Shown piece after piece: positions 55,335-57,230 of a stretch of 64,000 nucleotides of DNA. The DNA is from Escherichia coli (lineage in GTDB: Bacteria; Pseudomonadota; Gammaproteobacteria; Enterobacterales; Enterobacteriaceae), in the NCBI RefSeq assembly GCF_003334405.1, contig NZ_QOWM01000008.1; one strand, given 5' to 3'. Numbering within the stretch: position 1 is the stretch's first letter; every line of letters begins with the position of its first letter. The position numbers were made by a program, and so were the translations under genes. The notes under the pieces were generated by a model. It saw only the letters and a program-made list of their open reading frames with translations. It was not told where the DNA came from and made no database searches.

Positions 55335-57230
55335 ATGGCAGGGAAGTTTCGCTGCATTTTGCTGTTGATAGCAGGGCTGTTTGTATCATCTCTAAGTTAT
55401 GCAGAAAACACGGAGATCCCTTCTTATGAAGAAGGGATCTCGCTCTTTGATGTTGAAGCCACTCTGCAACCAGATGGGGTGCTCGACATCAAAGAAAATA
55501 TTCATTTTCAGGCGCGAAATCAGCAGATTAAGCACGGCTTTTATCGTGATTTACCACGACTATGGATGCAGCCTGATGGGGACGCTGCACTGCTGAACTA
55601 TCATATTGTTGGCGTCACCCGTGATGGTATTCCTGAACCCTAGCATCTTGACTGGCATATCGGGTTAATGAGTATTGTCGTGGGCGATAAACAACGTTTC
55701 TTGCCTCAAGGCGACTATCATTATCAAATTCATTATCAGGTTAAAAATGCTTTCCTGCGTGAGGGGGATTCTGATCTGCTAATCTGGAACGTGACCGGTA
55801 ACCACTGGCCGTTTGAAATTTATAAGACCCGTTTTTCTCTCCAGTTCTCTAATATTGCGGGTAATCCATTTAGCGAAATCGATCTCTTTACCGGAGAAGA
55901 GGGCGACACATATCGTAATGGCCGCATCCTTGAGGACGGAAGAATTGAATCCCGCGATCCGTTTTATCGTGAAGATTTCACGGTCCTCTACCGCTGGCCT
56001 CACGCTTTACTTAGCAATGCCTCGGCTCCGCAAACGACGAATATTTTCAGCCATCTTCTTTTACCCTCCACGTCATCGTTGTTAATTTGGTTTCCGTGTC
56101 TGTTCCTGGTTTGTGGATGGTTATATCTCTGGAAGCGCAGGCCGCAATTTACGCCGGTAGATGTGATTGAAACCGATGTCATTCCGCCAGATTACACGCC
56201 CGGCATGTTACGTCTCGATGCGAAGCTAGTTTACGACGATAAAGGTTTTTGTGCCGATATCGTAAATCTGATTGTGAAAGGAAAAATTCATCTGGAAGAT
56301 CAGTCTGACAAGAACCAGCAAATCCTGATTCGTGTTAATGAAGGCGCGACCAGAAATAATGCGGTATTACTGCCCGCAGAGCAGTTATTACTGGAAGCGT
56401 TATTTCGTAAAGGCGATAAGGTCGTTCTTACGGGGAGACGCAACAGAGTCTTACGCAGGGCATTTTTACGGATGCAGAAATTTTATCTGCCGCGTAAAAA
56501 GTCTTCGTTTTACCGGTCTGATACTTTTTTGCAATGGGGTGGACTGGCAATATTGGCGGTCATTCTTTACGGTAACTTGAGTCCTGTAGGCTGGGCAGGA
56601 ATGAGTCTGGTGGGCGATATGTTTATTATGATCTGCTGGATTATTCCTTTTTTATTTTGTTCCCTTGAGCTTTTGTTTGCCCGCGATGATGACAAGCCTT
56701 GCGTTAATCGTGTAATCATCACTTTGTTTTTACCACTGATTTGTTCAGGCGTGGCCTTCTATTCTCTCTACATCAATGTCGGAGATGTATTCTTTTACTG
56801 GTATATGCCAGCGGGTTATTTTACCGCTGTTTGCCTGACCGGTTATCTCACTGGCATGGGGTATATTTTTCTGCCAAAGTTTACCCAAACTGGACAGCAA
56901 CGTTATGCCCACGGTGAAGCTATCGTTAACTATCTTGCGCGTAAAGAGGCAGCAACACACAGTGGACGTCGGCGGAAAGGGGAAACACGGAAACTGGATT
57001 ACGCGTTGCTAGGTTGGGCTATATCGGCAAATTTGGGGAGGGAATGGGCGTTACGCATTGCCCCTTCGCTTTCTTCGGCGATTCGCGCTCCAGAGATTGC
57101 CCGTAACGGCGTTTTATTCTCATTACAGACGCACCTAAGTTGCGGGGCCAATACCAGTTTGTTGGGGCGAAGTTATTCCGGTGGTGGTGCTGGCGGCGGC
57201 GCGGGTGGCGGAGGCGGTGGTGGCTGGTAA
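55335..57230 (+). pseudogene. yciQ: yciQ (DUF2207-type membrane protein) interrupted by one in-frame TAG at 55641-55643
   Basis: Track ORFs 55335..55643 and 55668..57230 are in the same frame with a single TAG between them; read through they give 631 codons, the length I recall for K-12 YciQ; signal peptide at N-terminus, poly-Gly C-terminus. Confidence 0.65.

Follow-up and report, generated by a model that had tools for sequence, protein, structure and literature searches.

We report that yciQ, a gene for an inner-membrane protein of the DUF2207 family, is interrupted by a premature amber codon in a 64,000-nucleotide stretch of Escherichia coli DNA (contig NZ_QOWM01000008.1 of assembly GCF_003334405.1), the whole of which we refer to as the window. 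The lesion is a change of TGG (Trp103) to TAG by a single G>A transition at position 55642, and it is very probable that this one base substitution has inactivated the gene and that the allele is a real, inherited and lineage-specific pseudogene. The features concerned are the following, in window coordinates.

55335..57230, plus strand: yciQ (orthologue of b1268; DUF2207 family inner-membrane protein), a 631-codon frame with one internal stop
55641..55643, plus strand: premature amber TAG replacing the ancestral TGG (Trp103), the mutated base being 55642, G>A
55335..55643, plus strand: 102-amino-acid open reading frame (ORF), the translatable remnant, described from hydropathy and domain limits
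55668..57230, plus strand: residual 520-amino-acid ORF from Met112 (ATG at 55668), described from the ORF list and hydropathy
55639..55643, no strand assigned: former Dcm site CCTGG, now CCTAG, as read from the sequence; on the bottom strand the partner of 55642 is the methylated inner C of CCAGG

The 102- and 520-amino-acid ORFs lie in one frame, and between them stand only the TAG and eight sense codons (HLDWHIGL); the coordinates and the translation agree with the initial annotation of this DNA, which had described the two ORFs in these terms and had equated the read-through length with that of intact K-12 YciQ. Read through, 55335-57230 translates as 631 sense codons followed by a terminal TAA, and yciQ of MG1655 (b1268, NP_415784.1) is equally long, at 1896 nt. 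The two genes are identical at 1894 of the 1896 positions, with zero indels, and their only differences are at 55642 (A here, G in K-12) and at 55886, the latter being synonymous; against E. coli C there are 1895 identities in 1896 positions, and 55642 is the sole difference. The earlier suggestion that the frame was broken by a point nonsense mutation rather than by an indel is thus borne out, with the ancestral codon identified by the reference alignment: K-12, E. coli C, CP53 and AR_0061 all read TGG at codon 103. The surrounding gene order, rnm-yciO-yciQ-rluB, is common to the ORFs of the window and to the annotated genomes of K-12, E. coli C and N61, a sister strain described below.

Pfam was run on K-12 YciQ, to which the read-through translation of the window is equal except at residue 103, and it places PF09972 (the DUF2207 N-domain) at residues 35-175 (E = 2e-21) and PF20990 (DUF2207_C) at residues 284-535 (E = 6e-9). 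Beyond an N-terminal signal or anchor at approximately residues 1-23, hydropathy shows membrane segments no earlier than about residue 245, and the stop at Trp103 lies midway through the N-terminal DUF2207 domain, ahead of every membrane segment. With its frame interrupted at codon 103, the copy in the window is classed as a pseudogene copy of the DUF2207 family. Translation would end after 102 residues, giving a short exported fragment made up of the signal sequence and about 79 residues of a truncated DUF2207 N-domain; this fragment is probably degraded, and we infer from the sequence that yciQ would in effect be null, save for traces of near-cognate read-through.

The 1.6 kb of mRNA left untranslated 3' of the stop may also impose Rho-dependent polarity on rluB. 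A crude scan of 54500-57600 for promoters and terminators gave no plus-strand promoter-like site before rluB, the 210-bp spacer included, and no convincing terminator after yciQ, and it is too crude to settle the question of polarity. Two inverted repeats lie in the same region. One, at 55413-55441 in yciQ codons 27-36, is a perfect 13-bp repeat with a 3-nt loop (GAGATCCCTTCTT ATG AAGAAGGGATCTC) that is scored as terminator-like on both strands and is identical in K-12; the other, a 12-bp repeat at 57358-57388 in the yciQ-rluB spacer (CAGTGAGTCAGA ... TCTGACTCACTG), has no T-run behind it and lies inside the segment that is absent from genomes without yciQ.

Exact carriers of the allele were sought with a 55-nt query centred on the variant, which leaves fewer than 28 nt on either side, so that megablast seeds only on exact carriers. 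Among 5,426 complete E. coli genomes there is one, strain N61 (NZ_AP028880.1), from bovine mastitis in Japan, and RefSeq annotates its yciQ (locus ACZ5FD_RS12415) as a pseudogene with an 'internal stop'. The codon-103 TAG is thus present in one of the 3,977 complete genomes that have yciQ, and is not conserved among carriers of the gene. N61 and the window share the gene, its synteny and the TAG, and their flanks are 99.97% identical over 45 kb; they differ by 11 mismatches in these 45 kb, one of them inside yciQ (56669: G in the window, A in N61), and by these comparisons N61 is a different isolate of the same sub-lineage. At 34113, in oppB, N61 is one C short in a CCC run and its oppB is annotated as frameshifted, the frame being intact in the window and in K-12; the N61 lesion may be genuine, which would make oppB a second pseudogene there, or it may be a homopolymer error of the N61 assembly.

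Beyond the complete genomes, DNA was fetched for seven contigs, and the TAG was read in five assemblies (SRR7304389, DLJE01000067, ERR12183207, SRR25949876 and SRR33017421). The exact 102-amino-acid product is recorded in hundreds of public contigs, and gene callers enter the 520-amino-acid piece as a separate protein. In the complete genomes that are closest over 25 kb (approximately 4 mismatches, as estimated from bit scores) yciQ is one gene and the TAG is absent, and because these closest other genomes have TGG, the mutation is recent. The initial annotation had suggested a strain-specific loss of function; the loss itself is supported, but it is not unique to the strain, being shared within a lineage that includes N61 and several Sequence Read Archive (SRA) assemblies. 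It had also held that a stop at this place in closely related strains would tell against a mutation in this one; such a stop does occur, but only inside the same sub-lineage, and the closest other relatives retain the tryptophan codon.

A different stop occupies the same codon in HB101 (CP184671.1; 10307-10309 of the fetched stretch) and in RR1 (NZ_CP011113.2; 19218-19220), in which codon 103 of yciQ is TGA and the sole difference from the MG1655 gene is a G>A change at the equivalent of 55643. As in the window, the predicted products are pieces of 102 and 520 amino acids, identical to those described above, and the RR1 gene is annotated as a pseudogene with an 'internal stop'. Unlike the TAG of the window, however, this TGA lies on the K-12 haplotype, and the changed base stands opposite the outer C of the Dcm site, which is not methylated; the HB101/RR1 stop is an event independent of the window TAG. 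HB101, under whose name the exact 102- and 520-amino-acid products are recorded, was also rejected as the source of the window, from which it differs at 8 positions in 18.7 kb. The supE44 allele that we take HB101 to carry was considered as an explanation of the stop in the window and was rejected, the DNA of HB101 and RR1 having TGA and not TAG, on the K-12 haplotype; their stop is opal and is therefore not read by their supE.

yciQ is dispensable and often lost in E. coli. It is wholly absent from about 27% of the 5,426 complete genomes: queries containing the flanks match 5,423 of them, whereas yciQ itself is covered in only about 3,965, and in 3,962-3,968 at least 80% of a query containing yciQ is matched, a count that reflects coverage only and may include copies with point disruptions. 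In O104:H4, yciO and rluB are 100 bp apart, and approximately 66 bp of unrelated sequence (1158-1223 of the fetched stretch), flanked by the yciO stop on one side and by the final 35 bp ahead of rluB on the other, stands in place of 55308-57406. BL21(DE3) has an insertion sequence (IS), IS1, in yciQ, and other genomes have insertions of IS3, IS5 or IS26; we note also a partial internal deletion at yciQ in O157-like genomes. In AR_0061 the gene has a TTA>TAA change at codon 345 (4033-4035 of the fetched stretch; window equivalent 56367-56369) and is annotated as a pseudogene; genomes of sequence type 540 (ST540) match this divergent yciQ haplotype equally well, and SRR33017421 combines TAA345 and the codon-103 TAG in one copy.

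The literature on yciQ and DUF2207 gives no established E. coli function and no known phenotype. The gene serves as a chromosomal integration locus in metabolic engineering (PMC11943725), and in the only DUF2207 study found, deletion of a DUF2207 protein in Streptococcus mutans leads to stress sensitivity (PMC10457818). The listing of yciQ as a 'regulator' in one pan-genome paper was set aside as unsupported by the domain content.

Inactivation by an inherited point mutation has to be weighed against other readings of the interrupted frame. The strain might truly have TGG, with the stop an error of sequencing or assembly, as the initial annotation had allowed; the difference is after all a single base, and only one of the 5,426 complete genomes has it too. 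However, the same base is present in the independent complete genome of N61 and in at least five independent SRA/GenBank assemblies, which makes a sequencing error very unlikely, and relative to K-12 the window has no indel noise, no frameshift and no other disrupted gene. The two pieces could also be imagined as a functional split gene, in which the 102-amino-acid fragment is accompanied by a 520-amino-acid protein re-initiated at Met112, or as the products of a programmed read-through of the TAG. An in-frame ATG does lie 24 nt past the stop, automatic pipelines call both pieces as genes, and the TAG is followed by a C, a comparatively weak termination context; but we regard this arrangement as most improbable, given that the allele is rare, recent and not conserved, that there is no good Shine-Dalgarno sequence before Met112 (upstream TATCGGGTTA), that the 520-amino-acid piece would be without the signal sequence and without 77 residues of the N-terminal domain (35-175), and that in SRR33017421 the gene with the same TAG had already been inactivated by another stop. 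The 520-amino-acid ORF is probably not translated to a useful product.

There is similarly very little to recommend the proposal, also made in the initial annotation, that the TAG sits in an amber-suppressor background, in which full-length YciQ with a substituted residue 103 would still be produced. Amber suppressors are frequent in K-12 laboratory strains: an exact-carrier query for the CUG>CUA change in glnV/glnX across complete genomes returned 158 supE genomes, and the 60 listed of these 158 include C600, DH5alpha, DH1 and RR1, which served as the positive control. All of the supE carriers among those 60 are, however, laboratory K-12 derivatives, whereas the window is not K-12, from which it differs by about 20 single-nucleotide polymorphisms outside the rtT repeat and by the absence of the K-12 IS5U. 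For the source strain the anticodon evidence is limited to the 64-kb window, in which tyrT and tyrV (19032-19410, minus strand) both have the wild-type GTA anticodon, so that there is no supF there. In N61, which has the same TAG, all four tRNA-Gln genes are wild type, with the anticodon CTG in glnV and glnX. HB101 and RR1 do have supE, but in combination with TGA and not TAG at codon 103, and because yciQ is dispensable the stop would be tolerable without any suppressor.

Differences from K-12 were also seen elsewhere in the window. Adjoining tyrV and tyrT, at 18670-19050, is a tandem repeat of a 178-nt unit in 2.1 copies (the rtT/tyrT-associated repeat), and this segment holds 18 of the 36 differences between the window and MG1655, a clustering that probably results from repeat-copy shuffling and alignment ambiguity. 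The IS5U that lies between ychE and oppA in K-12 (1,195 bp) is missing at approximately 31283-31286, which is one sign of non-K-12 descent.

As to how the inactivating TAG came about, deamination of 5-methylcytosine at a Dcm site is its probable origin. Dcm methylates the inner C on both strands, and the ancestral sequence at 55639-55643, CCTGG, is of the CCWGG form, with its fourth base, which lies opposite an inner C, changed from G to A. The ancestral site would have been methylated by Dcm at the inner C opposite G55642, and deamination of this 5-methylcytosine to T, if unrepaired by Vsr very-short-patch repair, would have turned TGG into TAG. yciQ contains two Dcm sites, and of the four possible deamination outcomes only the one at 55642 yields a stop. 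Viewed from the other side, there are 249 possible stop-creating point changes in yciQ, 57 of which are transitions, and since only that at 55642 is at a Dcm-methylated position, 5-methylcytosine deamination is the likeliest origin. Both dcm and vsr, which lie outside the window, are annotated as intact in N61. The specificity of Dcm, the deamination hotspots and Vsr repair have been described (PMC2715241, PMC3527292), and Dcm inner cytosines are established mutation hotspots (PMC3527292, and the reference list of PMC2715241).

The TAG occurs on three haplotypes, each of which is one base from its nearest TGG-bearing complete genome; the pairs are the window type and E. coli C, ERR12183207 and CP53 (over 3.5 kb), and SRR33017421 and AR_0061 (one difference in yciQ, two in 7.9 kb). 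This recurrence was entertained as proof of a hotspot and was downgraded, because stops at W77 and W107 also occur on several haplotypes. TAG carriers were found through a product ending at codon 103, a biased way of searching, and as a control ten further codons convertible to a stop in a single step were therefore looked up. Nine of the ten control truncation products are present in the collection, in 16-135 contigs each versus 255 for codon 103, which is thus the most abundant of the eleven products compared; the index blocks with contigs of at least 20 kb number 130 for codon 103, versus 5 for W107 and 3 for W77. We do not use contig counts as allele frequencies, since contig ends, and not stops, account for many of the control hits (14 of 24 at W107, 15 of 24 at W77) and raw counts inflate the control alleles. 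Several contigs with truncated YciQ entries end at the same codon.

A number of points weigh against the account given so far. The loss of the YciQ protein is itself predicted from the DNA, and a suppressor elsewhere in the source genome (in glnV, serU, leuX or others) is conceivable, if unlikely, the check having spanned the 64-kb window and the Gln tRNAs of N61. With regard to the hotspot, two tryptophan codons outside Dcm sites behave in a similar way, W107 having TGA on at least two haplotypes and TAG on one, and W77 having TAG on two and TGA on one, so that W103 does not stand out by recurrence alone. Clonal spread and the many times that HB101 has been sequenced both confound the excess abundance of the codon-103 product; the TGA of HB101 accounts for 14 of the 25 contigs read. 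Finally, none of 92 other Dcm inner positions is variable in 18.7 kb aligned from 9 sequences, where about one would be expected, in a test of low power that lends the Dcm origin no separate support and whose majority-rule consensus hid the yciQ site itself.

The recurrent G>A stops at W77 and W107, the existence of nine of the ten control products and a local alignment in which variation is not enriched at further Dcm sites would all be in keeping with an ordinary replication error, or with other damage unrelated to Dcm, the position within CCTGG then being a coincidence. We consider this somewhat unlikely, as the chance of hitting the single Dcm-methylated option is 1 in 249, or 1 in 57 among transitions, the codon-103 stop is the commonest of the eleven products, notably in long contigs, N61 has intact dcm and vsr, and Dcm inner cytosines are known to be hotspots. 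Deamination at the Dcm site is thus the origin that we prefer, and the reading of Trp103 as a hotspot is supported rather than proven. A broader proposal, in which Trp103 is a natural Dcm-dependent amber hotspot through which yciQ has been repeatedly and independently switched off across lineages, its loss possibly being favoured in niches such as the bovine udder or the gut, seems improbable to us; if true, it would make yciQ a handy natural reporter of 5-methylcytosine mutagenesis and of the efficiency of Vsr repair in wild populations. We are equally sceptical that loss of yciQ has been positively selected, so that the stop would be adaptive rather than the product of neutral decay, a reading compatible with any mechanism of origin. 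The routes of loss are many: about 27% of genomes have no yciQ, several IS insertions in it occur, and its stop alleles are numerous and varied. But a neutral, dispensable gene in a very large collection would show the same pattern, most genomes with yciQ keep it, and there is no known phenotype in E. coli, the only report found on DUF2207 being that from Streptococcus mutans. Moreover, the yciQ of SRR33017421 was already dead when its TAG arose, so that selection cannot explain the TAG there.

For annotation, the two ORFs belong in a single entry, a yciQ pseudogene interrupted by an internal stop, in the way that RefSeq treats N61, and not in two entries for DUF2207 proteins. It is an ordinary pseudogene of an already-annotated kind in an often-lost gene, with little import beyond annotation, and as a natural and clean instance of a Trp codon turned to amber at a Dcm site it is a textbook illustration and not a discovery. 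Public truncated YciQ 'proteins' are a mixture of real nonsense alleles and contig-end artefacts, which calls for caution when loss-of-function alleles are counted.

Elsewhere in the window, an IS4-family element of about 1.33 kb lies at approximately 639-1967, with a transposase ORF at 746-1954 (plus strand, 402 amino acids), inserted between two copies of the ldr toxin gene (331-438 and 2204-2311). Matching elements in other genomes are named 'ISVsa5 family' by the Prokaryotic Genome Annotation Pipeline (PGAP), and we presume the element to be IS10-like. K-12 and N61 are without an IS at this site, and only 2 complete genomes have one in a comparable place.

A comparison of the yciQ lesion with known systems reveals likenesses on two sides. 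Among other natural loss alleles of yciQ the same dispensable gene is inactivated, but the window has the smallest lesion possible, one base, where O104:H4 and O111:H8 have lost the whole gene. With regard to mechanism, the closest parallel is with the amber hotspots of lacI, which Coulondre, Miller and colleagues reportedly attributed in 1978 to deamination of 5-methylcytosine at CCAGG sites. In lacI as in the window, a TAG arises when the Dcm-methylated inner cytosine of CCWGG undergoes a transition; the methylated C of the yciQ site, however, belongs to the non-coding strand, and the change is accordingly TGG>TAG instead of CAG>TAG. For the lacI hotspots mutation rates were measured in dcm+ and dcm- strains, whereas for yciQ the mechanism is deduced from the position of the mutation and the abundance of the allele.

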